Assembly (NCBI GenBank): GCA_937935355.1
Contig: CALGYR010000006.1
Span: forward strand, 5,608 to 69,607
Length of the DNA: 64,000 nt
From: an uncultured bacterium
GTDB lineage: Bacteria; Planctomycetota; SZUA-567; JAKLDR01
Direction: 5' to 3'
This document shows, in pieces, positions 2,843 to 41,473 of the stretch. Positions within the stretch are counted from its first letter, which is position 1; each line of letters opens with the position of its first letter. The position numbers and the translations under genes are program-made. Below the pieces are notes generated by a model, which was given only the letters and a program-made list of their open reading frames with translations, did not search any database and was not told the origin of the DNA.

Positions 2843-3946
2843 ATGTCCAGCAGACAGAGAGCAGTTTGCGAGAGCGTTCCCACACGGTCTTCGGCGCAGC
2901 TCGCGGATCAACTCCGCGCCAGGATTTCCAAGGGAACTCTGGCCGGCGGCAGCTTCCTGCCCAGCGAGCGCGAGTTGGCCCGGGAGCAGAAAGTCAGCAG
3001 CAAGACCGCCCGGCGGGCGCTGAAGCTGCTCGAGTCCGAGGCGCTCATCGTCTCGGAAAGCCGCCGCGGCTACCGGGTGCTCTCGCGCGCCAACGACCCG
3101 GACCGGGGCTGCCCGATCGCCATGGTGATCGCCAATCCGCCCGAGTCCGGAGACCGCAGCTTCTACGGCAGCCTGCTGGGCGCGCTCCAGGACGCCGCCG
3201 GGCGCAGGGGCTGGTCGCTCTTGGGCGTGCAGCGCGAGGGGCGCCCGATTGGCGAGGTCGTCGAGCGCCTGCGTGCGGCCCGGGCTTGCGGCGCGGTGGT
3301 CGACTCGCTCGATACGGAACTGCTCGAGGCGGTCAGGCGCCTGGGCGTCCCGGTGGTGCTGGCCGACGCCTGGTTCGCCGACTCGCCCTGCGATGCGGTC
3401 GTCCAGGACGGCTTCGCCGGCGGGGTGCTGGCCGCGGAGTGGCTCGCCGGGCGCGGCCACCGGCGGATCGCCTTCCTGGGTCCGGACCCGCGGGGAGCGG
3501 ACATGCTGGTCGTCGAGCGCTTCTCCGGAGCGGTCGGTGGCCTGGCCCGCTCGGGCCTGGCGCTCGACCCGGGCCTGACCGCAGTGACGCGGCAGGGCGA
3601 TCCGGATGCGGCCGCCAGGTGCGCCCGGGAGTTGCTCTCCCGGGCGGACCGTCCCACCGCGGTGCTGGCCCTCTGGCAGGGCTTCGCCCGGGAGGCGGCC
3701 CGCGCCGCGCGCGAGCTGGGACTGGCCGTGGGCCGCGACCTGGACCTGGTCGGCTGGACGACGAGCCCGGCCCCCGGTGCGCCGGAGGCTACGGGCGCGG
3801 CCGGGCCGGAGCTCTCCGCGGAGGTGGTCTGGAGCCCCGCGGATCTCGCCGAGCTCTGCATTCTGCGCCTGATGCAGCGGCGGGCCGACCCGCGCATGCC
3901 GGCCTCGCTGACCCGCGTTCCGGTGCGGCTCGAAGTTCGCGGATAG
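2843..3946 (+). CDS. AraR-type transcriptional regulator (GntR-family HTH N-terminus + LacI/GalR-type periplasmic-binding-like effector domain), paralog 1
   Basis: GntR HTH 'LPSERELAREQKVSSKTARRALKLLESEALIVSESRRGYRV' followed by a LacI-type sugar-binding fold ('VVLADAWFAD...DAVVQDGFAGGVLAAEWLAGRGHRRIAFLG'). ATG 2843 is preceded by GGGAGG; alternative ATGs at 2825 and 2831. The stop TAG lies directly upstream of the next gene's RBS. Confidence 0.8.
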   Translation: MSSRQRAVCESVPTRSSAQLADQLRARISKGTLAGGSFLPSERELAREQKVSSKTARRALKLLESEALIVSESRRGYRVLSRANDPDRGCPIAMVIANPPESGDRSFYGSLLGALQDAAGRRGWSLLGVQREGRPIGEVVERLRAARACGAVVDSLDTELLEAVRRLGVPVVLADAWFADSPCDAVVQDGFAGGVLAAEWLAGRGHRRIAFLGPDPRGADMLVVERFSGAVGGLARSGLALDPGLTAVTRQGDPDAAARCARELLSRADRPTAVLALWQGFAREAARAARELGLAVGRDLDLVGWTTSPAPGAPEATGAAGPELSAEVVWSPADLAELCILRLMQRRADPRMPASLTRVPVRLEVRG

Positions 3947-3957
3947 GGAGGACGAAG

Positions 3958-5207: not shown

Positions 5208-7871
5208 ATGAAGACCGCCTGCATCATCGGCATCCTGGCGCTCGCGGCCTGCGCCGTCCCCGCGGCCGAGCCCGCGGCGCCCTCCGGGGCCGTGATCCTC
5301 GACGAGAACAGCCACTGGCGCCTGGAGCGCACCTGGGTGCCGGGCCTGGCCAGGACCTCCGACGGGCGGCTGGTGCCGCTGGTCCCCGGCGCCGGCCTCA
5401 AGGGTCCGGCCCACGCCCTGGTCTTCAAACCGGCGCCCGGCGAGAAGTACGAGATGCCCAGTTGGCCGGCGCTGCCCGGGGACTGGGCTGCCCCGGGCTT
5501 CGACGACTCGCACTACGCGCTCCACCGCGGCCCGGTCAGCGTCAACGACTGCTACTCCATGCGGAGGGCCTTCACGCCACGCTGGGGCTTCAGCCTGGCC
5601 CGGATGCGCGGGCGCTTCGCGGTCGATGATCCTGCCGCGGTCGGGGACCTCAAGCTCGACCTGGTCTACCAGGGGGGTGCCGCCGTCTACCTCAACGGCG
5701 CCGAAGTGGCCCGCGGCGGACTTCCCGAGGGCGAGGTCGCGCCCGAGGCTCCGGCGGCGGACTACTCCGACGCCGAGACCGCCCGCCATAACGAGTGGGT
5801 GCGCTGCGACAAGATGGACCGGAAGCTGAGCGGGGTCGTCATCCCGGCGGCCAGGCTGGTCAAGGGCGTCAACGTCCTGGCCATCGAGGTCCACCGCGCG
5901 CCCATGCCCGAGAAGATGCTCAAGGACAAGAACAACTGGATTCCGCTGGAGCTCGTCTCGGTCCGGCTGAGCGCGGCTTCCGGCGCAGGGCTGGTGCCCA
6001 ACGGGGGCAAGCCCGCGGGCCTCTCCGTGTGGACCGGCGAGCCGACCTACTGCGTGCGGGTCGACGACCCCGGAGACCGGAGCCAGGCCGAGCCGCGGCC
6101 GATCCGGATCGCCGCCTGCCGGAACAGCACGTTCTCCGGGCAGGCGGTGATCTTCAACGACCAGCCCCTGGGCGCGGTCAGAGCGACGGTCGGAGAACTT
6201 GCGACCGCCGACGGCGCCAAGCTTCCGGCCTCGGCCTGCCAGGTGCGCTACTCCAAGCCCGACCGCCGGGGCGGCGGTGTGGAGACCGGGGTCTACGGAC
6301 CCTACAACGACATGAACTGGTTCGACGCGCTCGAGGAGGATCCGCCCGCCGAGGTCCCGCTGCGCTTCTTCCAGCCAAAGCCGCACCTGCCCAAGCAGAT
6401 GCACCTGGCCGTTCAGCCGGTTTGGCTCACCGTGCGTGTGCCGGCCGACGCCAAGCTTGGAGAGTACAAAGGACAGCTGGCCCTCGAGATAGCCGGGCAG
6501 AGCACCGTGAAGGTGCCCGTCGAGGTCAAGGTCCACGGCTTCCAGCTGCCGGACCCGAAGGAGTTCGCCACGTTCCTGGAGATGCACCACTCGCCGGAGA
6601 CGCTGGCCTACTACTACAAGGTCCCGATCTGGAGCGAGGAGCACTGGAAGCTCCTGGAGCGGTCCTTCGAACTTTCGGCGCGCGCCGGCAACAAGCTGAT
6701 CTTCATCCCGCTCTTCGCCCGCGCGCGCTTCGGCAACGATCACGGCATGCTGCGCTTCGTCAAGAAGGGAGACGACTGGGACTACGACTTCTCGATCGTC
6801 GAGCGCTACCTCGACCTGGCCATGAAGCACTTCGACCGCAACATGGTGGTAGTCTGGCACATCACCGAGCCGGCCCACGAGGACAACTACTGGAAGATCC
6901 GCCACGGGGGCAAGGTCGAGCCGCAGAAACATCCCCAGGTGACGGTAGTCGACCCCAAGGACGGGAGCCTCTCGCTCTTCAAGGCTCCGCTCTTCGGCAC
7001 GCAGGAGTCCCGCGACTTCTGGAAGCCGGTCTGCGCGCGGATCGCCGAGCTCGTCAAGAAGAAGGGCCTGACCAGGCGGGCGCTGGTCCTCGGCACCGAG
7101 CAGGACCTGGGCGTGAGCAAGGGCTTCCTCGACGACCTCAGGAACATCGCCCCCGGCTTCAAGTGGTCCCGGTGCACGCACCCGGCGCCGCCGCCGAGCC
7201 TGAAGTACCCCAACGGACTGGAGCTGGGCTACGCCAGCGACGTCTACGGCGGTGCGCTCCACCGCCCGCCCGAGCAGCAGCGCTGCTACGGCTGGATGTG
7301 GCGCGACGACGAGAACCTGGGCGTCCACGCCCACTGGCCGCGGAACTCCATGACCGACCATGCCTCCCTGTCGAAGATCCACCAGGTCATGGAGACGCAC
7401 CTGGTCAGCAGCCCCTACGCCATCGAGGAGTACGCCTACGCGGGGCTGTCCTACCAGGGGGCTGACTTCTGGGTCATTCCCGGCGTGAAGTCCAGGATGG
7501 ACAACGGCCGGGTCGGCACGCTCATCGACCGCTTCCCGGAGGCGATCTGGGGCTCGATCTCGATCGGCAACGGAGCGGTCTCCTGGCTGGCCCCCGGCCC
7601 CAACGGGACGATCTCCACGGCCCGCTTCGAGGTCCTCTGCGAGGGCATCCAGGAGGCCAACGTCCGGGTGTTCATCGAGCGGGCGCTGACCGACCCCGCC
7701 GCGCGCGCCAAGCTCGGCGAAGATCTGGCCGCGAAGGCGCAGGCGGTCCTCGACGAGCGCTTCCGGTTGCTCTATCCCCACCGGTTCATGGAGACCGCCT
7801 CCGGCGTCGGCGCGCGGCGGGAGAAGCTGCTCGCCGCCGCCGACGAGGTGGCCGCCCGGCTGGGGAAGTAG
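5208..7871 (+). CDS. Secreted DUF4091-like glycoside-hydrolase-like protein (paralog of 34370..36331)
   Basis: ATG 5208 after GGGAGGAG; signal peptide 'MKTACIIGILALAACAVPAAEP'. Conserved block 'QPVWLTVRVPADAKLGEYKGQLALEIAGQSTVKVPVEVKVHGFQLPD' matches 'QPVWLTVLVPADAAPGVYRAEVTVSAEGLAATKVPLGIKVYGWTMPD' in the paralog. The DUF4091/GH-like assignment is from memory of that family motif. The N-terminal extension in the ORF track is rejected. Confidence 0.7.
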   Translation: MKTACIIGILALAACAVPAAEPAAPSGAVILDENSHWRLERTWVPGLARTSDGRLVPLVPGAGLKGPAHALVFKPAPGEKYEMPSWPALPGDWAAPGFDDSHYALHRGPVSVNDCYSMRRAFTPRWGFSLARMRGRFAVDDPAAVGDLKLDLVYQGGAAVYLNGAEVARGGLPEGEVAPEAPAADYSDAETARHNEWVRCDKMDRKLSGVVIPAARLVKGVNVLAIEVHRAPMPEKMLKDKNNWIPLELVSVRLSAASGAGLVPNGGKPAGLSVWTGEPTYCVRVDDPGDRSQAEPRPIRIAACRNSTFSGQAVIFNDQPLGAVRATVGELATADGAKLPASACQVRYSKPDRRGGGVETGVYGPYNDMNWFDALEEDPPAEVPLRFFQPKPHLPKQMHLAVQPVWLTVRVPADAKLGEYKGQLALEIAGQSTVKVPVEVKVHGFQLPDPKEFATFLEMHHSPETLAYYYKVPIWSEEHWKLLERSFELSARAGNKLIFIPLFARARFGNDHGMLRFVKKGDDWDYDFSIVERYLDLAMKHFDRNMVVVWHITEPAHEDNYWKIRHGGKVEPQKHPQVTVVDPKDGSLSLFKAPLFGTQESRDFWKPVCARIAELVKKKGLTRRALVLGTEQDLGVSKGFLDDLRNIAPGFKWSRCTHPAPPPSLKYPNGLELGYASDVYGGALHRPPEQQRCYGWMWRDDENLGVHAHWPRNSMTDHASLSKIHQVMETHLVSSPYAIEEYAYAGLSYQGADFWVIPGVKSRMDNGRVGTLIDRFPEAIWGSISIGNGAVSWLAPGPNGTISTARFEVLCEGIQEANVRVFIERALTDPAARAKLGEDLAAKAQAVLDERFRLLYPHRFMETASGVGARREKLLAAADEVAARLGK

Positions 7872-7963: not shown

Positions 7964-9301
7964 ATGCCCGGACCAAACCTGCTCTTCGTCTTCGGCGACC
8001 AGTGGAGGGCGCAGGCCCTCTCCCACGCCGGCGACCCGAACCTGGCCACGCCGAATCTCGACGCCTTCGCGGCCTCGGGCGTGCGCTTCACCAACGCGGT
8101 GAGCAACTCGCCGGTCTGCAGCCCGCACCGGGCTACGCTGATGACCGGGCTCTACCCGCACCTCAACGGCATGGTGGCCAACGACCAGTGCCTGGCCGCC
8201 AACTGCCCCGGACCGTACCTGGCCGAGTGCCTGGCGGCCGGCGGCCATCAGACTGCCTACATCGGCAAGTGGCACATCGATGGCCGCGGCCGCCGGCGCT
8301 TCGTGCCGCCCGAGCGCCGGCTGGGCTTCGGGCTGTGGCGGGGCTTCGAGTGCAACCACGACTACTGGGACGCGCCGTGCTACGGCGACTCGCCCGAGCC
8401 CGAAACCCTTCCCGGCTACGAGAGCTTCGCCCAGGTGGAGCTCGCCCGCCGCTTTCTGGCCGGGCAGGCCCGCGAGCCCTTCGCGCTCTTCCTGTCCTGG
8501 GGGCCGCCGCACGACCCCTATGGCACGGCGCCCGAGGAGTTCCGCTCGCGGCACCGGCCGGAGGACGTGCTTCTGCGCCCCAACGTCCCGGCCGCGGCCG
8601 AGGCCGTCGCGCGCAAGGAACTGGCCGGCTACTACGCGCACTGCGAGGCGCTGGACCTGGCCTTCGGCCGGCTGCTGGCCGCACTCGAGGAGACCGGGCA
8701 CGCGCGCGACACGGTGGTGATCTTCACCGCCGACCATGGCGACATGCTCGGCAGCCAGGGCTTCTTCCGGAAGCAGCGGCACTACGACGAGTCGGTCCTG
8801 GTGCCCATGCTGGTCCGCGACCCGCGGCGCACTCTCGGGCCGGCCGCCGTGGAGGCGCCCATCTCCACGATCGACCTGATGCCCACGCTGCTGGGCCTTG
8901 CCGGCTGCGAGGTCCCCGAGCGGTGCCAGGGGCGCGACTGGACGCCGGCGATCCGCGAGGGCGCCGCGCCGCCGGTCGACGCGGCGCTCCTGGCCTGCCA
9001 CGCGCCCTTCCATCAGTACACGGCGGCGAAGGGCGGCCGGGCCTACCGGGGGGTGCGCACAGCGCGGCACACCTACGTGCGCTTCATCGACGGAGTCCGG
9101 CAGCTCTTCGACAACGCCGCCGACCCGTACCAGATGCGCGACCTGGCGGCCTCGCCGGAGCACGCCGGTACGATGGCGGAGCTCGAGTCGCGCCTGGCCG
9201 CGCTTCTCAAGGAAGCCCGCGACCCGTTCGAGCCGCCCGAGGAGCTCTTCCGGCGCTGGTCGGTGCGGCTCAACGCCAGGGGCGAAGTCTACTACGACTG
9301 A
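7964..9301 (+). CDS. Sulfatase (arylsulfatase family, Cys-type formylglycine motif), no signal peptide
   Basis: 'SPVCSPHRATLMTGLYP' (C-x-P-x-R sulfatase signature), 'IGKWHI', 'VIFTADHGDMLG'. Starts 'MPGPNLLFVFGDQ' without a signal peptide. Confidence 0.9.
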   Translation: MPGPNLLFVFGDQWRAQALSHAGDPNLATPNLDAFAASGVRFTNAVSNSPVCSPHRATLMTGLYPHLNGMVANDQCLAANCPGPYLAECLAAGGHQTAYIGKWHIDGRGRRRFVPPERRLGFGLWRGFECNHDYWDAPCYGDSPEPETLPGYESFAQVELARRFLAGQAREPFALFLSWGPPHDPYGTAPEEFRSRHRPEDVLLRPNVPAAAEAVARKELAGYYAHCEALDLAFGRLLAALEETGHARDTVVIFTADHGDMLGSQGFFRKQRHYDESVLVPMLVRDPRRTLGPAAVEAPISTIDLMPTLLGLAGCEVPERCQGRDWTPAIREGAAPPVDAALLACHAPFHQYTAAKGGRAYRGVRTARHTYVRFIDGVRQLFDNAADPYQMRDLAASPEHAGTMAELESRLAALLKEARDPFEPPEELFRRWSVRLNARGEVYYD

Positions 9302-10169: not shown

Positions 10170-10355
10170 AAGCCTGCCGCCCTTCGCGCGGGGCCGTTTC
10201 AAGAAGACGGTTTTTTTGCCGCGGAGAAGCGGAGGCACAGAGCAGGCTCGGGAACGCGGCGGACAGCTCCTGCAGTGAAGAGCCCCGGCCGCGGACACGA
10301 TCCTGTCTCGGCGCCTCCGCGCCTCGGCGGTGAGCATCGGTTCCTGAAATGGCCC
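10170..10355 (+). ncRNA. Conserved non-coding element, copy A (terminator-like hairpin + ~140-nt conserved block)
   Basis: CCGTTTCaagaaGACGG followed by TTTTTTT (10187-10210), then 'GCCGCGGAGAAGCGGAGGCACAGAG...CCGCGGACACGATCCTGTCTCGGCGCCTCCGCGCCTCGGCGGTGAGCATCGGTTCCTG'. Function unknown; copy B is at 46205-46360. Confidence 0.3.
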
Positions 10356-17778: not shown

Positions 17779-17815
17779 TCTACACCGGGCGGGCGGGAAG
17801 TCACGCCGGTCCGGG

Positions 17816-18009
17816 CGTTCCCCAGGGTCTTTCAATTTTGCCCAACGGGCCTACAACTTGGGGCCGGCGGTGCTATCGCCGCCGGCCCCAAGTTCCCTCC
17901 AGAGCCGATCCTCGCTCGAGAGCAGGGGACCGAAAGCCAAGTCCTGACAGCAGGACTTGGCTTTCAGGTAGGCCCGTTGGGCAGAATTAAGAGACCCTGG
18001 GGCGTTCCC
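17816..18009. mobile_element. MITE-like structured element: 39/42-bp terminal inverted repeats enclosing two perfect hairpins
   Basis: Left arm 17816-17854 (CGTTCCCCAGGGTCTTTCAATTTTGCCCAACGGGCCTAC) is the near-exact reverse complement of right arm 17968-18009. Internal palindromes: 17855-17894 (AACTTGGGGCCGGCGG...CCGCCGGCCCCAAGTT) and 17932-17965 (GAAAGCCAAGTCCTG...CAGGACTTGGCTTTC). Confidence 0.5.
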
Positions 18010-18029: not shown

Positions 18030-18110
18030 CTACCTGCCGGCCGCAGCCTTCTTGTACCGGTAGGCCCACATCGTCCCGTTGTCGCGGCCGTCGCAGGCGG
18101 TGTGCAGGTT
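18030..18110 (-). pseudogene. Out-of-frame 3' fragment of a Kelch-family gene ('NLHTACDGRDNGTMWAYRYKKAAAGR*') directly after the HEAT/Kelch gene stop
   Basis: 56 of 58 nt identical to the 3' end of the paralog at 37811..39169 (…GGTAGGCCCACATCGT[C/A]CCGTTGTCGCGGCCGTCGCAGGCGGTGTGCAGG), shifted +1 relative to the 18109..20781 reading frame. Confidence 0.45.
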
Positions 18111-20781
18111 ACTTGTCCGCCGACGGCCGCCTTCCTCCGTCCGCCCCGAAAAACGCCTTTGTGCCAACGGGCACGTTCTTCAGCCGGAAGGCGACCATCT
18201 TGCCTGATCTGAGGCCGATGAAGACGTTGTGCTGCGGATCGAAGTCGAAGACGACCATTTGGAAATTGCCGTCGGCAGCCTTGCGCCATGTGTCGGTTTC
18301 CCTGTCATAGGCATAGGCCCCGGTCGAGCGGAGCACTGTCAGGTCGCGGTTCAACGAGTCGAAGACCATCTGCATGCCCTGGCTGCCGCGCTCCCCTTCG
18401 GGCAGCGGACTTTTCGACTTGCGGGCCGTGCCCGTCCCAGGACCCATCAGCCACACGCCGAAATCCTCCGGCGTCTGACCGGCGCGCTTCTTGTGGTTCC
18501 TGACCTCGCGCAGCACCAGGTCGGCAACCGGGTCGTACCCGGCGGCTTCGAATACATAGAATGCGTGCAGACGTGGCAAGCCCGCAAACGGAAGTTTGAC
18601 CAGGTTTTTCGTCCGGGTATCTATAGCGTCGGTGACCGGTCCCATGAACTCGTTGTAGACGTGTCCACGTCGAGAGTCGGCGATGTACCACTTCGGTCCC
18701 TCGCCGGTCGTGACCGTGGTTTGGGGGTAATGACCGTCGAAACGGTCCAGGGTCAAGTCGTAGGTGGCCGCGTCGGTGCGGCGGGTCATGTCCGTGGGAA
18801 ATCCGGTCGAATTGTTCATCCAGAACAGGCGCGATTGCCAGCAGTAGACCAGCCCCCTAGAACACCCGCGGCCGGCCCTGACTTCGTTGAAGAACAAACC
18901 GGACACCTCGTTGGGACGGATGACGAACTGCTTGCCGCTGGCCGGGTCGTAGCCGATGCACTCGTTCGAATAGCACATGTCACAGCCGCCGTAACGCAAC
19001 CACACTCCCGCACGGGCATCCACTGCGCAACGGGTCTCACCGTACGAGGCGACGGTCACCGCTTTGTCGAGGACGACCACTTTCCCGATCGGGAAATCGG
19101 CGCCGAATTGAGGGTTGACCGGGTTGTAGGCGGGAATAAACCCATCCAATTCCTTCCCGACGCGCGCGAGCAGTTCCGCATGTTCCTGTCCTCCCGCTTC
19201 GACTTCCCTGAGCATCGCCCAGGCGGAACGTCTGGGCAGGTACTCCTTCTCGCCTTCGAGAAGTGCGGCCAGCGCGCGGGCGGCCTCCGGTCCGCCTATG
19301 CGGCCAAGAGCCAGTGCCGCGCGGCTCCTTGTCACGCGGTTCGAGGACGAGAGTGCCCGGACCAGCGGCTGGACCGCCGCCAGCTGGGCGCTCTCGCCCA
19401 GGCCCCGTGCAGCGGCCGTCGCCGCGGAGAGATTCTCCGAGTCCAGCAGGGGGGCGATCCTGTCTATGGCGTCCGGCCCACCGATATAGCCGACGACCAA
19501 CGGCACCGAAAAGCCGCGAACAGTCAGAAACTTCTCCAGATATGGCAGGGCCGGCGGTCCGGAAAAGCGTGCCAGCAGAAACTCCGAATGGAGCATCCAG
19601 CGCTCGACGCCCAGCCGCGGGCCGAGTTCTTCGGCCAGAGCCTTGCCGTCGCACACCGCCGCCAGCGCGCGCTTGCCGACATCGGCGGAACTCCCCGATT
19701 GATTGCTTGCTGGCCAAGGCTGGCCGCGCCCGGCCAACTCGCGGAAGAATGCCGTCGCCGCGGAGCCGCCGGAGTAGTCCGCCAGGGCGGCTTTTGCCCG
19801 GATCTGGATGTGTTCGCTCTTGGTGGTTTTGCATAGCTCGATCAGCTTCACGATATCCTCCTCCGTCCCGAACGCCGCTATGAACGGGCCCGAATCCCGG
19901 GTGCCGATTTCATCGCGAACTGCGGCATCCCAATGTTTGGCCAGATCCGGTTTCTGGACGGGTCGCGGGACGGCCGTTGGGCTTTCCCAGCGACGCAGCG
20001 CCCTGGCAGCCGCCTGGCGCACCAGCAGGCTGGGGTCGCCCGAGAGTTTCTTCGCCACCGCCTGCCCCGAGCCGCAACCGGCCGCGAGCCGGGCCGCCGC
20101 CTCCCGCAGGGGCACATAAGACGAGCCGGCCAAGGCTTCGAGGGCCGCCGCCGTGATCGGGTCAGCGAAGGCCGCGCCCAGCGGTGCTTGCCACAGGCCG
20201 GCATCGCGAGGGGAGGCCCGCGAGTAGAGCTTGTCGCCGGCGACCCACCGGACAATGTTGAAGTCCTCCTCGCCGTCGAGCCGGCGCAGTGCGTGCGCAG
20301 CCGAAAGTGCCACAGCCGGGTCGCCCCCCGCCGCCGCCTTTGCCAGCGCCGGCCAGGCGCGCGCGTCCTTGAGCCAGCCCAGCAGCCACGCCGCGCGGAT
20401 CGCCTCCGCCCCGCCTGCCGACAGCTTTGCCTCGAGTTCCTTCCGCTTCGCTTCGTCCGGCCGGTGCGCCACCAACACCCCGCCGATCACCTCCACGCGG
20501 ATGCCCGTGCCTTTCTCGAAGTCAGCGGCTGGCTTCGATGCGGAGACGTTCTCGCCGCCGACACGACCGCGTCCGGAGATCCCGTCGACGGTCGCCCAGC
20601 GCAGCCCCGCTGCCTCCCCCAACCGCCAGGCGAACTCATGCTCGTTCCACCAGCGGGTCTCCAGCGAGACAGTGGTGGACAGCGATGGCTCCCCGGTCCG
20701 ACCGAACTTCGGGGCTGCGCACAGCCCGCTCAGCACGGCGAGGATGACGGCCGCAGTGTATCTCATCCCATGACGTTTCAT
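18109..20781 (-). CDS. Secreted HEAT-repeat protein with a C-terminal Kelch-family beta-propeller
   Basis: Signal peptide 'MRYTAAVILAVLSGLCAAP'. Repeated 'A...ALG.LG...A...L..LL.D....VR..AA.AL' HEAT/PBS-lyase-like units. C-terminal region homologous to the paralogs ('YDRETDTWRKAADGNFQMVVFDFDPQHNVF'). Start overlaps the regulator stop (ATGA). Confidence 0.7.
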   Translation of the reverse strand: MKRHGMRYTAAVILAVLSGLCAAPKFGRTGEPSLSTTVSLETRWWNEHEFAWRLGEAAGLRWATVDGISGRGRVGGENVSASKPAADFEKGTGIRVEVIGGVLVAHRPDEAKRKELEAKLSAGGAEAIRAAWLLGWLKDARAWPALAKAAAGGDPAVALSAAHALRRLDGEEDFNIVRWVAGDKLYSRASPRDAGLWQAPLGAAFADPITAAALEALAGSSYVPLREAAARLAAGCGSGQAVAKKLSGDPSLLVRQAAARALRRWESPTAVPRPVQKPDLAKHWDAAVRDEIGTRDSGPFIAAFGTEEDIVKLIELCKTTKSEHIQIRAKAALADYSGGSAATAFFRELAGRGQPWPASNQSGSSADVGKRALAAVCDGKALAEELGPRLGVERWMLHSEFLLARFSGPPALPYLEKFLTVRGFSVPLVVGYIGGPDAIDRIAPLLDSENLSAATAAARGLGESAQLAAVQPLVRALSSSNRVTRSRAALALGRIGGPEAARALAALLEGEKEYLPRRSAWAMLREVEAGGQEHAELLARVGKELDGFIPAYNPVNPQFGADFPIGKVVVLDKAVTVASYGETRCAVDARAGVWLRYGGCDMCYSNECIGYDPASGKQFVIRPNEVSGLFFNEVRAGRGCSRGLVYCWQSRLFWMNNSTGFPTDMTRRTDAATYDLTLDRFDGHYPQTTVTTGEGPKWYIADSRRGHVYNEFMGPVTDAIDTRTKNLVKLPFAGLPRLHAFYVFEAAGYDPVADLVLREVRNHKKRAGQTPEDFGVWLMGPGTGTARKSKSPLPEGERGSQGMQMVFDSLNRDLTVLRSTGAYAYDRETDTWRKAADGNFQMVVFDFDPQHNVFIGLRSGKMVAFRLKNVPVGTKAFFGADGGRRPSADK

Positions 20782-21935
20782 GACTGTGCCCCCCCTCTGT
20801 CCTGTCCCGCAACGCTTCTTGTCCCACCGTTCCCGAGGACGGCTCCAGCCTGTTCATCCGGCAGCCTCAGCCCGGCGGGAATCCTCAGCCGGACCGGCGG
20901 CAGCCCCGGCTGGGCGCGGCGCTGCTCGAGCCGGGCGATGGCCGCCTGGGCCATCCCGGTTAGGCTCCACGTCATCGCTGGCGCGATAGGCCCACCGCCG
21001 AACATAGGGCGGTATTCGCTTTCGTAGGACTCCTCGTCGCTCCATCCAACCATCTCGAAGTCCCGGCCCGGGACCAACCCCTCCTCGGCGGCGGCGCGGA
21101 CCAATCCGGCGGCGGGCACCTGCCAGAGCGCCAGGATACCCGTGGGGCGGTTCGGCGCGCGCAGCAGCCGCCGGGCGCACTCCAGCGCAGCGGCGCTGTC
21201 TTCCAGGGGCATCTCCATGCGAAGCTCCGGCTCCAGGCGCAGTCCGAGGGATGCCAGCCCGCCGATCGCCCCCAGCGTCCTTTCGATGATCTCTCGCGCG
21301 CCCCCAGCCAGTGCGTAGCCCAGCCAGCCGATGCGCCGGTGGCCACGGGCTGCAAGATGCGCGGCTGCGGCCATCGCCCCGGCGAAACCGTCCTGCGACA
21401 CCGAGTCGATATCCGGGCGTTCGTGCCAGGTGCCGACCAGCACGGCCGGTATGCCGTCTCGTTTCAGTTGGTCGAATAGCCTGGGATCGGAAACGTTGAG
21501 CAGCGCGCCCCAGGCCCGGGCCGACCGGAACTTGGCCACCAGTTCCTTCGGGGCCCCGTCACCGCGGGAAACCGCCAGCACCGACCGGCCCAGCTTGGTG
21601 GCCGCCTGCTGCAGCGCAGCCATGAGCTTGCGCTCGAATGGATCCCAGTCCTTCTCGTAGAACACCAGACCCAGCGGGCAGCCGCGGTCTGGATCGTTGG
21701 CTCGGGCCAGCACGCGGTAGCCCCGGCGGGGTTCACTACGGACCAAGCCCTCAGCCTCGAGGTGATGTAGCGCGCGCCCTACCGTTTCGGACGGCAGTCG
21801 GTATCTTGCACAGAGATCCCGCATCGTGGGCAGATACTCTCCGGAGCCGACCTTGCCTGACACAATCAGTTCCTTCATGACAGAAGAAAGCTCCCCCGAC
21901 CTTCTGCCTACGCCTGAGCCATGTGACCTGGTCAT
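20778..21935 (-). CDS. AraR-type GntR/LacI-hybrid transcriptional regulator, paralog 2
   Basis: 'MKELIVSGKVGSGEYLPTMRDLCARYRLPSETVGRALHHLEAEGLVRSEPRRGYRV' HTH plus a LacI-type domain ('GIPAVLVGTWHERPDIDSVSQDGFAGAMAAAAHLAARGHRRIGWLG'). ATG 21935 is preceded by AGGAGG; alternative ATG 21878. The stop overlaps the start of the downstream HEAT/Kelch gene. Confidence 0.8.
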   Translation of the reverse strand: MTRSHGSGVGRRSGELSSVMKELIVSGKVGSGEYLPTMRDLCARYRLPSETVGRALHHLEAEGLVRSEPRRGYRVLARANDPDRGCPLGLVFYEKDWDPFERKLMAALQQAATKLGRSVLAVSRGDGAPKELVAKFRSARAWGALLNVSDPRLFDQLKRDGIPAVLVGTWHERPDIDSVSQDGFAGAMAAAAHLAARGHRRIGWLGYALAGGAREIIERTLGAIGGLASLGLRLEPELRMEMPLEDSAAALECARRLLRAPNRPTGILALWQVPAAGLVRAAAEEGLVPGRDFEMVGWSDEESYESEYRPMFGGGPIAPAMTWSLTGMAQAAIARLEQRRAQPGLPPVRLRIPAGLRLPDEQAGAVLGNGGTRSVAGQDRGGAQS

Positions 21936-24719: not shown

Positions 24720-24735
24720 TGGAACACCTATTGCT
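24720..24735 (+). promoter_or_regulatory. Sigma-54 (-24/-12) promoter TGGAAC-N5-TTGCT upstream of the radical-SAM gene
   Basis: TGGaaCacctaTTGCt has GG and GC separated by exactly 10 nt (consensus TGGCAC-N5-TTGCW). It lies in a low-GC stretch 22 nt upstream of RBS AGGAGG (24757-24762), divergent from the sigma-54 activator gene. A perfect palindrome CATTGCAATG (24625-24634) lies ~90 bp upstream and is a candidate upstream activator sequence. Confidence 0.55.
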
Positions 24736-24768
24736 TTGTCAAGAACGCTTCGGCCCAGGAGGTGACCG

Positions 24769-26127: not shown

Positions 26128-26157
26128 AGTGCAGGGCTCCACTCAGGAGGGCGGAAA

Positions 26158-27272: not shown

Positions 27273-27387
27273 AGCGCGTAGCGCTGCCGTTCCGCAGGCT
27301 GCGTTGGGGGGCGAAGCAGCCAACCGAGGATCGAGGGGCGGGCAATCTTGCTGGCACCGCTAACGGTTACGAAGGGAGCGCAGTCTC

Positions 27388-30300: not shown

Positions 30301-31518
30301 GCGACCAACGGCACCGACTACGCGGGCCTCTCCGGGTCGGCGGTGATCCCGGCCGGCTCGAGCTACCTCTACGTCACCGTCGCATCCAAGGCCGACAGCC
30401 TGGTCGAGGGCCGCGAGTACTTGAAGCTCTCGCTGGCCGCCTCGAGCGCCTACCAGATCCACAGCTCGACCGCCGCGACGGCCTACATTGTGGACGACGA
30501 CTTCCCGGCGGTGAAGATCGCGGCGACCGACGCGGTGGCGGCCGAGGGCGGCTCGGACACCGGCACATTCACGATCACCCGGACCGGTCCGCTCTCGAGC
30601 GCGCTGGTCGTCTACCTCAAGACCGGGGGCTCGGCCGTCAAGGGCGCCGACTACGTCGCGCCGCCGGCCTCGGTGACGATACCCGCCGGGGCGGCCTCGG
30701 TCACGGTGAAGCTGACCGCCATCAACGACTCCCTCGCCGAGGGCAAGGAGACGGCGACGCTCTACCTCGTCGCCAACGCCGCCTACCAGCTCTCGACGAG
30801 CACGTACGCGACGGTGACGATCTACGACGACGAGAAGCCGGAGGTGACGCTCAAGGTCACCGACAGCCGGGCCTACGAGCAGGGGTGTGACCCGGCGGTC
30901 TTCACGGCCAGCTGCTTCCCGGCGGCCAAGGCGAACCTTTCCGTGGCCTACACGGTCTCGGGCACGGCCACCAACGGCACGGACTACCAGAAGCTCTCCG
31001 GCACGGCCACCATCCCGGCCGGCGGCACCTCGGCGACGATCACGGTCAAGCCGATAGACGACGCCGTGGCCGAGGCCGGCAGCTACGAGACGGTGGGGGT
31101 GGCACTGGCGGCCGGGAGCGGCTACGCGCTGGGCTACTACAAGTCGGGCACGGCCTACCTCTACGACAACGAGCCGACGATGAGCGTCTCGGTCTACGAC
31201 TCCTCGGCGGCGGAGACCCTGTCCGGGGCCGTGGCCGAGACCGGGCGGTTCAAGCTCTATCGCTCGGGCGGGGACGTGACCAAGTCCCTGACCGTGGGCT
31301 ACACGATGAGCGGCACGGCGACGAACGGCACCGACTACGCGAAGCTCTCCGGCTCGGCGGCCATCCCCGCCGGCTCGACCTACGTGTACGTCTACGTCAC
31401 GCCGGTGAACGACGCGCTCAAGGAGGGCAGCGAGACGGCCACCCTCACCATCGCGGCGAGCACCGCCTACAAGATCGGCACGGCCAGCGCGACGGTGACC
31501 ATCGCGGATAACGATTAG
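27388..31518 (+). CDS. Large secreted protein (1376 aa): N-terminal carbon-nitrogen hydrolase (nitrilase-superfamily) domain, Ig/cadherin-like domains, 7 Calx-beta repeats
   Basis: Signal peptide 'VALLAALWIAASSASS'. CN-hydrolase catalytic-triad context 'LVVVPEYTF' (Glu), 'VGYRRKVTEW' (Lys), 'VVFPIICDEEADCDL' (Cys). Repeated 'GTATNGTDY..LSG...IPAG.S...V.V.P..D...EG.ET' (Calx-beta) x7; 'ANDQPIVSSFSP...YAWKLDG' cadherin-like. Confidence 0.8.
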   Translation: MHIHFGGNVGHTFVALLAALWIAASSASSQEATDVPSGPVRVVALKMDAENTGLDRRALLREKLAAVLAGMGAGSVDLVVVPEYTFYRGYESDPVKILPDGANFRVVSTGTAKSNEIAAAVSEAQAWAQANNANMILGTVADLVTPQDDPALPASVTFNTQLVIDRLGRIVGYRRKVTEWISSLGLSSTVAKQKALQSLRTWTLSTRGGMDFVVFPIICDEEADCDLLARSAAFNADLVINSECVLETWVSREIEKITKSVQDGAWTPTVPGARFFRDVYVKRYVVSRNAVKPGGWLVAANSYGSTGGMIELNVPPGPLASLNITDHYVHGVIQFASRSEPTNKMPIITAAPSAVPSTVVLPSHATVNVAISDPDNGPWPLYVTWSKVSGLGSVTFSPNGTASAASSSAVFSLAGPYILRAEISDGMDEVSQDLAVLVTDDNRSVNKAPAVSAGPDCTVTSPSKASLKGMVIDDGLPNPPGTVTVKWSHVYNPSTLILSSPNTLATLVTASKPGTYIVRLTASDGALSASETVAVTFDPIPENQPPLANAQSVTTVEDVAKAITLVGTDADGDALTYTVVTNPAHGKLSEAGAVRTYTPAADWSGTDSFTFKVNDGKADSNVATVSIAVTAANDQPIVSSFSPGSLVTVPAGTTQAFSVDAWDVDGDALSYAWKLDGVAVPVTLSSMNYSPVAADAGAHVIAVTVSDGKGGAASKSWDVNVIAGSQAPAVALTAPAAGAVYAAGSSIVLAATASDADGKVVKVEFYQGATKLGEDLAASYGLTWKSVPTGSYTLTAKAFDDQGLSTVSAPVTVKVIPTVTVAVSDSVGSEPGTDTMKFKVSRASSTASALTVYYTVGGTATSGTDYAALPGSVSIPAGASYAYVTVTPKDDAAIEGKETVTFTVSANSAYKLGSTVTGTAWLLDNELPVVTTSAYDAYAFEGSATDTARFKVSRTGSTAAALTVKYAMSGTATNGTDYAGLSGSAVIPAGSSYLYVTVASKADSLVEGREYLKLSLAASSAYQIHSSTAATAYIVDDDFPAVKIAATDAVAAEGGSDTGTFTITRTGPLSSALVVYLKTGGSAVKGADYVAPPASVTIPAGAASVTVKLTAINDSLAEGKETATLYLVANAAYQLSTSTYATVTIYDDEKPEVTLKVTDSRAYEQGCDPAVFTASCFPAAKANLSVAYTVSGTATNGTDYQKLSGTATIPAGGTSATITVKPIDDAVAEAGSYETVGVALAAGSGYALGYYKSGTAYLYDNEPTMSVSVYDSSAAETLSGAVAETGRFKLYRSGGDVTKSLTVGYTMSGTATNGTDYAKLSGSAAIPAGSTYVYVYVTPVNDALKEGSETATLTIAASTAYKIGTASATVTIADND

Positions 31519-37722: not shown

Positions 37723-37810
37723 CTTTCCCTTCTCCTTGCTTTGGCAAAAGCACATCCCCTGCCTCCAGCAGGCCGCTTTTAACGGCCTGCCAGTTCTTCT
37801 GGCGCCTTCT

Positions 37811-39169
37811 CTACTTCTTCTCCGCCGCCCGCTTGTAGCGGTAGGCCCACATCGTACCGTTGTCGCGGCCGTCGCAGGCGGTGTGCAGGATGTGGGCGTT
37901 GAGCTCCGGGTCGTAGAAGCCGGTCCAGGTGGGGTTGCCCTGGCGCTTGAGCTCAGGCGGATCCTTTGCAGCCACCTCCCACTCGTTCTTCTCCGGGTGA
38001 TAGACGTAGACGCCGGGCGCCTCGTCGCCCTTGGAGCGGTGGAAGAACAGTACCACCGCGTCGTTGACGCTGTCGTAGAAGAGCATGGCGCGGTTGGTCG
38101 CGTAGCTCGTGGGGGTCGGATTCACCTTCGGCTCCAGGCGCGAGAAGGTCTCGGTCTTGACGTCAAACATCCACAGGGCGCTCTCGCCAGGCTTGATCTC
38201 CAGGCCCTTGGCCGGGTAGATGCCGCCGGCCAGATAGATCCGGTCGCGCTTGCTGTCGTAGCAGCTGTTCGGGTCAATTTGCCAGGGAGGAGGGGTTCCT
38301 TTGCGTTTGATCTCCACCCAGTCCTGAGCCCCGGGATCGTACCAGGCGATATGGGAACTGCGGTTCTTGTAGCCGAAAGCCTTCTTAACGGTGGGAACGT
38401 AGACAAGAGTGGCGCCGAAACCGCCCGGTGAGTTTGGATTGGCGGTGCGATAGCGTTCGAAGCGACCGGTCCTGGAGTTGTAGATGTACGGGCTGGAGCC
38501 CTTGCTTGCAGCCCACACCGGCTCTTTGCCCGCCGCCCGGGCCTTGTCCGTGGACTCCTTGTGCGCCTTCAGGGCTGCGACTCTTCCGATGATGCCCTTG
38601 TGAAAGTCGCCCTCCTTCCAGTACGCCCCCGGGCACCCCATGTTCATGAAGAGCCCGCGGTCGGTGTCGTATGTCACCATGCCGTAGGCGTGCACCATTG
38701 ACGCGATGGGCAGGGGCTGGCCGTCCGGGGCCACTTCGAAGCCGGTCTTCTCGTCGAAGCCGATCTGCCCGTAACCCTCCTTGGCGTGAATGCCCGGATA
38801 CACGCAGATCCACCTGTGCTGGTTGAGGTCGTAGAACCAGAGGTCGTCGTGGTAGTGCCCGTCGGGCTTGACCATCCCGTGCGGGCCCTCGCCGAAGACG
38901 AACGCCCCCCGCAGGTCCGGGGCGAAGGGCGCCACCGGCGACCAGCTTCGCCCCCGGGCCTTGCCCCACTTGGGATCGGGAGCAGGAGAGCCGAGATCTA
39001 CCCACTGGTTGTCGCCGAGCGCCTTGATCTTCGCCAAGTGCTCGCCCTTCGGCTCGCTCGGCAGCGCGGCCAGCGGGCCCTTGCGCTCGGCCTCGGCAGG
39101 CTCTCCTGCCCCGAGAGCCCCGGCGGTCAGGGCCAGAACCAGAGCCACTGCACAGACATGCCTTGCCAT
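37811..39169 (-). CDS. Secreted Kelch-like beta-propeller protein (tandem array member)
   Basis: ATG 39169; signal peptide 'MARHVCAVALVLALTAGALGAGEP'. 'HLAKIKALGDNQWVDLGSPAPDPKWG...HYHDDLWFYDLNQHRWICVYPG...CDGRDNGTMWAYRYK'. Confidence 0.8.
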   Translation of the reverse strand: MARHVCAVALVLALTAGALGAGEPAEAERKGPLAALPSEPKGEHLAKIKALGDNQWVDLGSPAPDPKWGKARGRSWSPVAPFAPDLRGAFVFGEGPHGMVKPDGHYHDDLWFYDLNQHRWICVYPGIHAKEGYGQIGFDEKTGFEVAPDGQPLPIASMVHAYGMVTYDTDRGLFMNMGCPGAYWKEGDFHKGIIGRVAALKAHKESTDKARAAGKEPVWAASKGSSPYIYNSRTGRFERYRTANPNSPGGFGATLVYVPTVKKAFGYKNRSSHIAWYDPGAQDWVEIKRKGTPPPWQIDPNSCYDSKRDRIYLAGGIYPAKGLEIKPGESALWMFDVKTETFSRLEPKVNPTPTSYATNRAMLFYDSVNDAVVLFFHRSKGDEAPGVYVYHPEKNEWEVAAKDPPELKRQGNPTWTGFYDPELNAHILHTACDGRDNGTMWAYRYKRAAEKK

Positions 39170-39191
39170 GAGTCTTTCTCCCCTCTCTGGT

Positions 39192-40328
39192 TCAGTTCGT
39201 CTCGGCGGCGGGTTTGCCGCCCGCATCGCCCTTGAAACTGAACTCCTTCGGCGGCTGGTAGGCCCAGACGCCCGATCCGCTCACCAGCAGGGCAACCTTG
39301 TCGACGGGGTCGTACCGGAACCGGCTCCAGACCGTGCCTTTCAACTCCGGGACCTGGGAGTCGACGTCGCGCCACTTCCCGGTCGCGCAGTCGAAGAGCG
39401 CCAGACGGCTGGGGCTGGGAGGATCCCCGCGCGGCACGTGGAGATAGAGGGCCGCGTCGTGCTCTGGCAGGTAGGTCAGCCCGGCGCCGCCGCTGGCCCC
39501 CTCCAGGGGATGGGCCTCGACGGACATGTCCTCCAGGTTCACCGTGCAGGCGGCGTCCGCGGGCGTGCTGCCGACGATCATGACGCGGTCGCTCTTGGGC
39601 AGGTACTCCATCTGGACGTTGATGCCAACCGGAACGATCTTCGACTTCACTGGGTGCCGCTTCCAGGTCTTCGCCTTGAGGTCGAACTGCTGAAGCTCCG
39701 TGCGCTCCTTGCCGTAGGCCCAGACGGTGTCGCGCTTGGAATCGTAGCAGCAGGCCTTGGCGTAACCGAACCCCCTGGCGTTGTCCGACAGCTGCGTCCA
39801 CTTGTTGTCTTTGAACGAGTAGCTCCAGGCATCGGACGGCACCATGCATGTGGGCTTGATGTCCCCCCAGCCCGGCCCGCAGCCGCCGAATATGAACATG
39901 GCCCCCGAGCTCTTCAGGAAGCACAGCTGGTTGTAGCTGTGCCGGGTGTAGGGCTTGTCGGAGTCCTTGAGCTTGCCGTTCTTGTGGTCGAGGTTGTCGT
40001 TGGTGTACCGCGCCCGGGCATCGGGCTCGTACATCTTCTGCCAGGTGAGCGTCGCCGGCGAGAAGGCGCAGACCTCGTTGCCCCAGTAGTCGGCGTGGCC
40101 GCCACCGAAGATCAGGAACCGATGGTTGACCGAATCGTAGACCCCGCCCGAATAGGCGAGGATCCCCCGGGGCGCCGGGGCGAAGCCGGCCACCTTCTCC
40201 CAGGAGTTCTCGGCGATGGCCGTCAGCTTGGGATTCGGCTCATGTCCGGGCTCCCCGGCCGAGGCGACTCCCAGGCTGCCGGCCAGAACGACCGTCGCGA
40301 GACTGCCCGTTGCCCAGCGCATGCTCAT
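39192..40328 (-). CDS. Secreted Kelch-like beta-propeller protein (tandem array member, divergent)
   Basis: Signal peptide 'MSMRWATGSLATVVLAGSLGVASAGEP'. Kelch-like 'FIFGGCGPGWGD...WSYSF..NKWTQL' blades. The ATG overlaps the regulator stop (ATGA). Confidence 0.75.
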   Translation of the reverse strand: MSMRWATGSLATVVLAGSLGVASAGEPGHEPNPKLTAIAENSWEKVAGFAPAPRGILAYSGGVYDSVNHRFLIFGGGHADYWGNEVCAFSPATLTWQKMYEPDARARYTNDNLDHKNGKLKDSDKPYTRHSYNQLCFLKSSGAMFIFGGCGPGWGDIKPTCMVPSDAWSYSFKDNKWTQLSDNARGFGYAKACCYDSKRDTVWAYGKERTELQQFDLKAKTWKRHPVKSKIVPVGINVQMEYLPKSDRVMIVGSTPADAACTVNLEDMSVEAHPLEGASGGAGLTYLPEHDAALYLHVPRGDPPSPSRLALFDCATGKWRDVDSQVPELKGTVWSRFRYDPVDKVALLVSGSGVWAYQPPKEFSFKGDAGGKPAAETN

Positions 40329-41473
40329 CCTCCCGTGAGAACCTTGTCTTCACGCTTCACGCCCGCCGTGCTCGACCTGACCACCAGCCTGTCCGGCACA
40401 AGAACGAATCGTCCCTCTGCCGGCTCGGCCGGCCGCAGGGCGGCGCGCACCGCCTCGCGGCCCATCCGCCGGAAATCGATCCGGCAGCTGGTCAGCGAGT
40501 CGCAGATCCCCAGCCGCGAGGCGGTGTCGCCGAAGCCGGCCACGGCGACGTCCCGGCCGGGCTCGAGCCCGCGGCGCCGAAGGCTCTCCATGACCAGGAG
40601 CGCCCGGCGGTCGTCGTAGGCGAAGATGGCCGTGGGCGGCTCGGCGAGGGCCAGCAGTTCGCCGACCGCCGCGTCCACCAGGGCCGGGGCCTTCGAGTAG
40701 TCGGCGGGCACGCCCAGCGCCGGCGCGACCGTTAGCCGCGCGTCGACCGGGGCGCCGGCATCCTCCAGCGCCGCCACGTAGCCGGCATGCTTGTCCGGGT
40801 TCCACTGCTGCCGGTCGCCGACGTCCAGGAAGGCGATGCGGCGGTGGCCCAGCCCCAGGAGGTGGCGGGCCACCGCGCGCGCGCCGGTGAAGCTGTCGTC
40901 GCCGACCAGGACCGCGGGCAGGCCGCGGGTGGGCTCGTCGACCATCACGACCGGACCGGCCCGGAGCGCCAGGAGCCGCGAGACCAGCCGGGGCGGGCCG
41001 AAGCGCACCAGCAGGAACCCGGCGTGGGCGCGCATCTCGCGGTTGTCCAGCAGGCGCCCGGCGTCGCCGGCGTCCTCCCAGGCCAGCAGCTCGCAGCGGG
41101 TGCCCGCCCGTCCGGCCTGGGCCCGGATGCCGGCGACCATGTCGGCGACCTGGCTCCAGCCTTCCGCCTCGCGGGGCCGCGTGCGGACCACCAGGGCCAG
41201 GCTCCTGGCCGCCGCCCGGGCCCGACGCTGCCCGTCGTCGAGCACGTAGGTCCCCGAGCCGTGCCGTCGCTCGATGAGCCCGTCGGCCTCCATGGCGGCC
41301 AGGGCGCGCTGGAGGGTCTGCTGACACACCCCCATCTTGGCGGCGAGCTGCCGGTAGCCGAGCAGGCGTCGGCCGGCCAGCTTCTGCTCGCGGATCATCC
41401 GTTCGAGTTGCTCGCGGGTATCGGCGAACCTCGGGGCGCTGTGTATCTTCTCGGGCATGCCGGGCTCCATCAT
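40325..41473 (-). CDS. AraR-type GntR/LacI-hybrid transcriptional regulator, paralog 3
   Basis: 'LLGYRQLAAKMGVCQQTLQRALAAMEADGLIERRHGSGTYV' HTH plus a LacI-type domain ('PAVLVGDDSFTGARAVARHLLGLGHRRIAFLD'). First gene of a minus-strand operon with four Kelch genes and a GH-like gene. Confidence 0.8.
   Translation of the reverse strand: MMEPGMPEKIHSAPRFADTREQLERMIREQKLAGRRLLGYRQLAAKMGVCQQTLQRALAAMEADGLIERRHGSGTYVLDDGQRRARAAARSLALVVRTRPREAEGWSQVADMVAGIRAQAGRAGTRCELLAWEDAGDAGRLLDNREMRAHAGFLLVRFGPPRLVSRLLALRAGPVVMVDEPTRGLPAVLVGDDSFTGARAVARHLLGLGHRRIAFLDVGDRQQWNPDKHAGYVAALEDAGAPVDARLTVAPALGVPADYSKAPALVDAAVGELLALAEPPTAIFAYDDRRALLVMESLRRRGLEPGRDVAVAGFGDTASRLGICDSLTSCRIDFRRMGREAVRAALRPAEPAEGRFVLVPDRLVVRSSTAGVKREDKVLTGG

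Follow-up and report, generated by a model that had tools for sequence, protein, structure and literature searches.

AraR-type regulators, exported Kelch-type propellers and GH123-like proteins form recurrent gene modules in an uncultured planctomycete

Gene organization of the regulator-headed modules

A 64,000-nucleotide stretch of an uncultured bacterium of the Planctomycetota (GenBank assembly GCA_937935355.1, contig CALGYR010000006.1, positions 5,608 to 69,607; hereafter the window) contains three operon-like modules. Each module is headed by the gene of a predicted AraR-type repressor, which combines a GntR DNA-binding domain with a LacI-type small-molecule-binding domain. Translation of the regulator is likely to be coupled, or almost coupled, to that of exported Kelch propellers with six blades. 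A gene related to glycoside hydrolase (GH) family 123 comes next in two of the modules, and a sulfatase gene in one. The features are collected in Table 1, and genes are named by position. Three of the propellers (3958, 36361 and 37811) form one family, which is called the trio.

Because the G+C content of the window is high (64–77%, about 69% overall), genes were chosen by codon-position GC and annotated with Pfam. Several long open reading frames (ORFs) were cut back to internal starts having a ribosome-binding site (RBS) and a signal peptide. The starts of 37811, 36361, 34370, the GH123-like gene of module I and 46378 were thereby corrected to 39169, 37722, 36331, 5208 and about 48420, respectively. 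The true start of 46378 is internal Met 298, and the 297 codons upstream of it are an Arg-rich out-of-frame artefact.

Table 1. Features of the three modules and their surroundings in the window (ECF, extracytoplasmic function; TM, transmembrane)
Feature	Coordinates	Strand	Evidence or remark
GGTGTAT sites	2814, 24608(-), 41496(-), 41627, 46155(-), 56060(-)		
Module I regulator, AraR-type	2843..3946	+	Pfam GntR 1.4e-15, Peripla_BP_3 8e-17; GGGAGG before start 2843
Module I exported Kelch propeller, trio family, 410 aa	3958..5190	+	Kelch_4 31.6 bits; signal peptide
Module I GH123-like (formerly DUF4091), 887 aa, extra N-terminal domain	5208..7871	+	PF13320 2.2e-19, PF22680 2.1e-9; signal peptide
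Sulfatase, same direction, 92 nt past GH123-like gene	7964..9301	+	PF00884 1e-48; CSPHR formylglycine motif in N-terminus
ECF sigma - TM helix - small beta domain - Kelch-type propeller - small beta domain, 799 aa	12508..14907	-	
MFS/TPR gene, downstream in module II	14995-17835		
Relic of 3' end of 37811-type Kelch gene, 68 nt, encodes LHTACDGRDNGTMWAYRYKK	18041..18108	-	93% DNA identity to 37822-37889
Module II exported HEAT-repeat + divergent propeller, 890 aa	18109..20781	-	HEAT_2 1e-19
Module II regulator, AraR-type	20778..21935	-	GntR 6e-11, Peripla_BP_3 2e-12, Peripla_BP_1 4e-8
Module III exported multi-Kelch protein, 887 aa	31680..34343	-	Kelch Pfam matches down to 1e-20
Module III GH123-like, 653 aa	34370..36331	-	PF13320 1.2e-17, PF22680 8e-10
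Module III Kelch propeller, trio family, 453 aa	36361..37722	-	Kelch_3 28.6 bits
Module III Kelch propeller, trio family, 452 aa	37811..39169	-	Kelch Pfam match above gathering score
Module III Kelch propeller, separate branch, ~376 aa	39192..40328, or start 40322	-	Kelch_4 2e-10
Module III regulator, AraR-type	40325..41473, start 41473 or 41458	-	Peripla_BP_3 2.5e-25, GntR 1.2e-10
Promoter/operator-like block GGTGTAT-N5-AGTGTGCTGAAAGTGAC upstream of regulator 40325	41474..41503	-	Nearly invariant in four orthologous upstream regions, flanks diverge
Second block GCCAATTGCTTGATATGCACTGTCTAAGTGTGAT, containing another AGTGTGAT repeat	41565-41605	-	Kept between window and locus L006; divergent region regulator 40325 / GH4 gene
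AAGTGTGAT site upstream of regulator 40325	41572-41579		
GH4 gene	41713-43047		Pfam
Exported Kelch propeller + FN3-like C-terminal repeats, ~680 aa	46378..48420	-	Kelch Pfam 1e-12

In module I the order is regulator, Kelch, GH123-like and sulfatase, with gaps of 11, 17 and 92 nt; the 11-nt gap between 3946 and 3958 contains an RBS, and the sulfatase gene is a possible last gene of the module. The module II regulator (21935–20778) overlaps the HEAT-propeller gene by ATGA (20781/20778), and the MFS/TPR gene and the ECF sigma-propeller fusion (14907–12508) lie further downstream. In module III the regulator overlaps the Kelch gene 39192 by ATGA (40328/40325), followed by Kelch 37811, Kelch 36361, GH123-like 34370 and the 887-aa Kelch 31680, with gaps of 22–88 nt. 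The 88-nt gap between 37811 and 36361 holds a perfect 8-bp-stem hairpin (GCAGGCCG...CGGCCTGC, 37768–37790) without T-tract, which may be a processing or stability element within the operon. Gene 46378, the eighth propeller gene, lies after a gene with a weak GH20b-like N-terminus.

This arrangement agrees with the original prediction, made from the sequence of the window, in which an AraR-type regulator is followed by one or more propeller genes and sometimes by a GH123-like gene, the regulator stop overlaps the propeller start in two modules, and a sulfatase and other GHs (here the GH4) are found nearby. Secretion of the propellers, also part of that prediction, is supported as well, since all cargo proteins have signal-peptide-like N-termini after start correction. 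The signal peptides end in [AG]-[AGE]-[AG]-E-[PR] (AAEP, GAGEP, SAGEP and so on) in 3958, 5208, 18109, 31680, 34370, 36361, 37811, 39192, 46378 and 48504, which is probably a lineage-specific cleavage-site preference. The ending [AG][AG]EP was rejected as a special sorting signal, because it is restricted to this lineage; orthologs of close relatives share it, and Gemmataceae orthologs have FAQDKK.

All three regulators (2843, 20778 and 40325) carry a GntR winged-helix domain (PF00392, E-values 1.4e-15, 6.2e-11 and 1.2e-10) and keep a C-terminal LacI-type effector domain (PF13377, 8e-17, 2e-12 and 2.5e-25). PF00532 was matched in two of the three, and partial NCBIfam matches to LacI/RbsR/CytR were obtained. 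Regulators 2843 and 20778 are 42% identical, and 40325 is about 29% identical to both; the three are paralogs, as proposed. The same architecture, an N-terminal GntR winged helix with a C-terminal GalR/LacI-type effector domain, is found in B. subtilis AraR, a chimeric GntR/LacI-type arabinose repressor (PMC1950556). The cargo differs, being exported propellers here and not arabinose catabolic enzymes.

An AraR-type operator had been expected upstream of each module, and the motif search found no common one. The AraR box consensus of B. subtilis (ATTTGTACGTACAAAT) was absent at up to 3 mismatches. A conserved upstream element is the 30-bp block at 41474–41503, which occurs nowhere else in the window, contains three direct RGTGW repeats one helical turn apart and, unlike the AraR box, is not palindromic. 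It is a good candidate for a promoter or operator. The position of the regulator at the operon head together with this conserved block is compatible with autoregulation. The clade-A block AGTGTGNTGAAAGTGAC occurred a single time in the window and was rejected as a regulon-wide motif.

Two shorter motifs were rejected as the shared operator. GTGTAT lies about 22–26 nt ahead of the start of all three regulator genes, and GGTGTAT was observed 7 times in the window against 2.3 expected, six of them at or just upstream of gene 5' ends and in the orientation of the gene. It also precedes unrelated genes (the sigma54 activator, GH4, 44590 and 55133) and is therefore probably a general promoter element of the organism. 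Exact GTGTATAG was found in the window only before 2843 and 20778, and with 1 mismatch it was not enriched. Scans over the modules for sigma70 promoters and intrinsic terminators gave counts not above those of shuffled sequences.

Propeller families, ECF sigma fusions and GH123-like proteins

The eight propellers had been described as an eightfold expansion of one family. Kelch Pfam matches above the gathering score were obtained for 3958 (Kelch_4, 31.6 against a cutoff of 21.6), 36361 (Kelch_3, 28.6 against 22), 31680, 37811, 39192 and 46378. The C-termini of 12508 (Kelch_1, 17.4 against 20.1) and 18109 (16.3 against 20.1) stayed below the Kelch gathering score. The six-bladed propeller of four-stranded blades was found. 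By all-vs-all BLAST, only the trio is mutually alignable over the full length, at 35–38% identity (35–36% between 3958 and the other two); the non-trio propellers gave motif-level matches or none. With the trio hidden Markov model (HMM), 39192, 46378 and 31680 were matched at E-values of 1e-14, 1e-15 and 7e-8, a relation at the level of the Kelch repeat only. Pairwise hhalign probabilities among the propellers were mostly below 90%.

The C-terminus of 12508 is a member of a large family, without Pfam assignment, of exported proteins of about 360 aa, and it matches the trio at the profile-profile level (93.5%, E 2e-7). The C-terminal 345 aa of 18109 match the trio profile at 95.7% (E 8e-9) over 259 collinear columns, including a shared C-terminal strand; this domain has 3 homologs among 5.8 billion proteins, all of them fused to HEAT repeats. 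The propeller profiles of 12508 and 18109 did not align with each other (2.9%). By these comparisons, all eight genes carry Kelch-type or Kelch-related propellers of at least 5–6 anciently diverged branches. The eight therefore stay within the Kelch clan or fold, rather than scattering over unrelated Pfam families, and the single-family expansion is not upheld. The fusions had also been predicted: those with an ECF sigma factor (12508) and with HEAT repeats (18109) are confirmed, and the FN3 domains of 46378 are weakly supported, with sub-threshold matches of its C-terminus to an RGI_lyase beta-domain (8e-5) and to fibronectin (E 0.06).

For each of the trio, a far more similar ortholog exists in another genome (74% identity in locus L063, 80% in L006 and 76% in L065), so the paralogs are old and do not reflect a recent local burst. 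The 3958 ortholog (74%, L063) lies ahead of an ortholog of the GH123-like gene 5208. Orthologs of 37811 are found in L065 (76%) and L053 (68%), and those of 31680 in L006 and L089 (79–91%) at the same module position. The 18109 ortholog (61%, L053) lies near a 37811-type Kelch gene. In the window, a 68-nt relic (18041–18108) of such a gene follows directly after the stop of 18109. This suggests the former presence at this site of a 37811-type gene, like the one that L053 retains near its 18109 ortholog, and is a sign that modules have recombined recently. A 35-nt inverted repeat (17820–17854 / 17968–18002, 91%) was seen in the 273-nt gap between the relic and the MFS/TPR gene.

The homolog search with the trio returned more than 500 matches, all annotated as hypothetical. 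In an exhaustive profile search among 1.84 billion representatives, 282 trio clusters at 50% identity were obtained (E ≤ 1e-30). Members are found in metagenome-assembled genomes (MAGs) of Planctomycetota, Kiritimatiellae/Victivallales, Verrucomicrobiota, Myxococcota and Fibrobacteres. In 32 diverse trio sequences, 45 columns are invariant, including E110, H113, D125, H179, E251, D318, R321 and D436, and they cluster in a conserved N-terminal segment, blade 1, the blade 1–2 connection and blade 6. Neither the trio nor 46378 nor the GH123-like proteins could be assigned to a named NCBIfam family. For the periplasmic Kelch mutarotase NanM/YjhT, TIGR03547 and NF010730 scored 18–23 bits against cutoffs of 256–416 for 39192 and 31680, and gave no match for the trio and 46378. 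The propellers thus differ from NanM/YjhT in the lack of a family-level match, and also in conserved residues and insertions. Their top structural neighbours are protein- or peptide-binding Kelch domains (LZTR1, KLHDC3 and Keap1).

In 12508, the sigma2 and sigma4 regions are both matched (Sigma70_r2 4e-12, r4_2 5e-10, TIGR02937 8e-20). A hydrophobic 19-mer lies at about residue 267, and the ORF is continuous over 799 aa with coding GC at third codon positions. A homolog elsewhere (P0023) consists of sigma2/sigma4, a linker, a TM helix and a trio Kelch domain; its linker/TM segment is homologous to that of 12508, which bears another propeller family. Among the representatives of about 650–700 aa from the exhaustive search, all six tested were ECF sigma - Kelch fusions. 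The recurrence of a Kelch propeller after a TM helix suggests an extracytoplasmic recognition or sensor role, which indirectly supports the original suggestion that the propeller is a recognition component and not an enzyme, and the conservation of this architecture across several divergent clusters argues for selection over accident. The ECF factors described from Planctomycetes are alike in having sigma2/sigma4 followed by a long extension, with unrelated extensions on one scaffold; here the extension is specifically a Kelch-type propeller after a TM helix, and no mention of Kelch was found in that work (PMC7671368).

The two GH123-like proteins 5208 and 34370 are 30% identical, and both have an N-terminal beta-sandwich (PF22680) and PF13320 (formerly DUF4091) above the cutoff. 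The PF13320 match covers about half of the catalytic-domain model. Both match BvGH123 (5l7v), at 2e-13 for 5208 and 1e-18 for 34370, and the clade profile matches 5l7v at E 5e-31. The sandwich and the PF13320 region are shared with the characterised GH123/DUF4091 enzymes (BvGH123 5l7v, CpNga123 5fqe and NgaDssm-type 8k2j).

The catalytic site is different. Of the DUF4091 proteins, 94% retain the Asp-Glu pair of the substrate-assisted catalytic mechanism (Sumida et al. 2024, PMC11087588). At this position, MDERP in BvGH123 and ADEPV in 8k2j correspond to GDAYP in 34370 and QDLGV in 5208, in a low-scoring segment of the alignment. The Asp is invariant, and the Glu is replaced by Ala in 34370 and its ortholog in L006, by Leu in 5208 and by Lys in the ortholog in L063; a distant relative (L072) keeps D-E. 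The replacement was consistent over three methods and two templates, with the local alignment being weak. Therefore, the predicted pair of paralogous DUF4091-like genes is present, but the hydrolase label is doubtful for proteins that lack the canonical Glu, and beta-N-acetylgalactosaminidase activity should not be assumed. The substitutions point to a pseudo-enzyme or an altered chemistry in the GH123-like clade linked to these regulators and Kelch proteins.

Occurrence of the modules in other genomes

The nearest relatives of the window are Planctomycetota MAGs. In 79 genome loci, the ORFs were scored with the window proteins, and the neighbours were also clustered without bias. The modular arrangement recurs outside the window. 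An AraR-type regulator stands directly before a trio Kelch gene in L006, L062, L068, L070, L081, L083 and L084 and nearby in L035, and the regulator-adjacent trio genes often come with tandem Kelch arrays. A metagenome scan with the regulator profile gave 9 loci, and orthologs of regulator 40325 are found at 77% identity in L006, L087 and L089.

The neighbours that recur around trio genes include other propellers: 31680-type Kelch genes at 6–7 loci, 39192-type genes at 5, 12508-type propellers at three (L031, L047 and L069), the 18109 ortholog in L053, and NHL/SGL propeller proteins at 10. Carbohydrate-type neighbours are PcRGLX/GH127-like proteins (5 loci), GH123-like proteins (L006, L063 and L072) and sulfatases. 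ECF sigma genes recur at L008, L023 and L026.

The closest relatives keep the order regulator, Kelch, GH123-like, NHL protein, Kelch880 (a Kelch protein of about 880 aa) and Kelch at 76–80% identity. In L089 the order is regulator, GH123-like and Kelch880 with no trio gene between, and the core of the module is therefore stable, with propeller genes that differ in number. Between modules I and III of the window, the divergence is similar for the regulator (29% identity), the Kelch protein (35–36%) and the GH123-like protein (30%). This parallel divergence is in line with an ancient duplication of the complete unit, and it speaks for a functional link between the components. The modules may have arisen by such an en-bloc duplication of the regulator, Kelch and GH123-like unit, followed by gain, loss and swapping of propeller genes. 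Short pieces resembling the regulator and a 37811-type Kelch lie upstream of an intact regulator in L087 (783–1383, equal to L088 2123–2723), and are another sign of rearrangement around the modules.

Genes for ribosomal protein S10 and seryl-tRNA synthetase (SerRS) lie between the modules, and the gene for tyrosyl-tRNA synthetase (TyrRS) past the last one; the surroundings are ordinary chromosome and not an island. Rfam and tRNA scans gave no matches in the window. An intergenic repeat of about 75 nt is present in two copies (10278–10350 and 46290–46362, + strand, about 80% identical), of which one precedes the S10 gene and the other separates genes 44590 and 46378; the repeat matched nothing in Rfam, and RNA structure prediction gave no significant result for it. 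The genes from 22181 to 31518 have no relation to the Kelch modules. Here the gene of a sigma54-dependent activator (22181–24562, - strand) is oriented divergently from three others, which encode a radical-SAM protein (24769), an N-acyl amino acid synthase of the FeeM-like type (26124) and a 1376-aa Calx-beta/cadherin/PKD surface protein whose N-terminus weakly resembles a CN-hydrolase (27388–31518).

Possible functions of the modules

We interpret the modules as sugar-responsive, probably autoregulated operons, whose main cargo would be exported Kelch propellers that recognise a ligand, most likely a complex glycan. Our confidence in this reading is moderate. In its favour are the domain architecture of the regulators, the tight junctions along each module (ATGA overlaps or 11–29-nt gaps), the signal peptides of all cargo proteins, the gene order kept in relatives, the parallel divergence of modules I and III, the carbohydrate-type neighbours, the recurrent sigma-TM-Kelch fusions and the conserved block ahead of regulator 40325. 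The regulator would repress its own operon at a promoter-adjacent site and let go on binding a sugar-like effector, and the exported propellers would recognise the glycan outside the cytoplasm, by binding rather than catalysis. Where the same types of propeller are part of membrane-anchored ECF sigma factors, as in 12508 and in sigma-TM-Kelch proteins elsewhere, they would serve as the extracytoplasmic sensor. In Bacteroidota, polysaccharide utilization loci (PULs) encode co-regulated exported glycan-handling proteins, and a beta-propeller acts as an extracytoplasmic glycan sensor coupled to transcription in hybrid two-component systems. The modules are alike in concept, and differ in having no SusC/SusD genes, another class of regulator and Kelch-type propellers as main cargo.

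Several observations weigh against this interpretation. The co-occurrence of regulator and propeller, which the original prediction proposed to profile, is seen as adjacency at about 8 of the 79 loci, but about 85% of the trio-family genes elsewhere have no regulator or GH123-like or other carbohydrate-active enzyme (CAZyme)-like neighbour, and most are solitary. Housekeeping genes (S10 and SerRS) separate the modules, and a common operator is missing. Fusion to a sigma factor need not mean a sensor, because some C-terminal extensions of planctomycete ECF factors have been argued to arise by fortuitous insertion (Pinto & da Fonseca 2020, PMC7671368). The very strong conservation of the trio would suit an enzyme or a metal site better than a typical lectin. 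Among the proteins of module III, none was found that matches a characterised glycosidase with intact catalytic residues, which together with the Glu-less GH123-like proteins leaves room for the propeller as the enzyme.

The main rival explanation is accordingly that the propellers, or at least the trio, are enzymes, either a new carbohydrate-active family or a NanM-like mutarotase/epimerase, with the Glu-less GH123-like protein as an accessory or binding partner. We regard this as possible, with a clearly lower probability than the binding role. The very high conservation across phyla and the invariant acidic, His and Arg positions, found mainly in blade 1, the blade 1–2 connection and blade 6, are in its favour, as are the weak NanM-family HMM matches of 39192 and 31680. 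The GH123-like partners lack the canonical acid/base, so that catalysis may come from another protein, and the tandem paralog arrays resemble CAZyme diversification. This explanation is opposed by the absence of any enzyme family above threshold (NCBIfam YjhT at 20–23 bits against a cutoff of 256, and no NCBIfam match for the trio), by the protein-binding Kelch domains as best structural neighbours, and by the repeated use of the propellers as the extracytoplasmic part of ECF sigma fusions, which fits a sensor better.

The other two explanations are less likely than the enzyme one. In one of them, the propellers would bind something other than a glycan, for example envelope proteins, peptides or a small molecule, and the modules would serve the envelope or cell surface and not the use of a nutrient glycan; this is improbable. 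The neighbouring GH123-like, sulfatase, GH4 and PcRGLX/GH127-like genes speak for a carbohydrate, and regulators with a LacI-type effector domain usually sense sugars, with AraR as a precedent (PMC1950556). The closest structural matches (LZTR1, KLHDC3 and Keap1) bind protein or peptide and HEAT repeats are protein-interaction modules, which agrees with a non-glycan target. ECF sigma factors often respond to envelope signals, which also counts for it. Chance assembly of several unrelated propeller paralogs beside ordinary sugar regulators, with no common function, is likewise unlikely: Planctomycetota carry many paralogs of Kelch and other propellers, at least five distinct families are represented among the eight, the modules have housekeeping genes between them, trio genes elsewhere are mostly solitary and ATGA overlaps are common in GC-rich operons, but the Kelch branches co-localise repeatedly in unrelated genomes (31680-type at 6–7 loci, 39192-type at 5, 12508-type at 3 and 18109-type in L053), the whole-module order is kept at 76–80% identity, and regulator, Kelch and GH123-like protein diverge in parallel between modules I and III.

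The regulator type, the fold and the GH-like scaffold of the preferred glycan-recognising operons are known, and what is new is an undescribed recurrent combination of uncharacterised families. No paper was found that links Kelch proteins with GHs of Planctomycetes, with GH123, or with sulfatases, PULs or Verrucomicrobia. Bacteria of the Planctomycetes, Verrucomicrobia and Chlamydiae (PVC) group are major degraders of complex and sulfated glycans, and their loci are poorly understood; to our knowledge, these loci do not follow the SusC/D logic of Bacteroidota. A bolder and rather doubtful proposal is that the trio represents a new extracytoplasmic glycan-recognising or glycan-processing class of PVC bacteria and Myxococcota that works with the Glu-less GH123-like proteins, that sigma-TM-Kelch proteins are single-polypeptide glycan-sensing ECF factors, and that both belong to a SusC/D-independent system for perceiving and processing glycans.

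The recurring unit of repressor, exported Kelch protein and atypical GH123-like protein, the joining of the same propellers to ECF sigma factors and the conserved DNA block ahead of a regulator gene provide entry points to these loci. If the propellers neither bind nor cut glycans, the modules would be an ordinary cluster of hypothetical propeller genes. If they do bind or cut glycans, they would constitute new binding-module or CAZyme families, and the Glu-less GH123-like clade would be a pseudo-enzyme or use a new mechanism.

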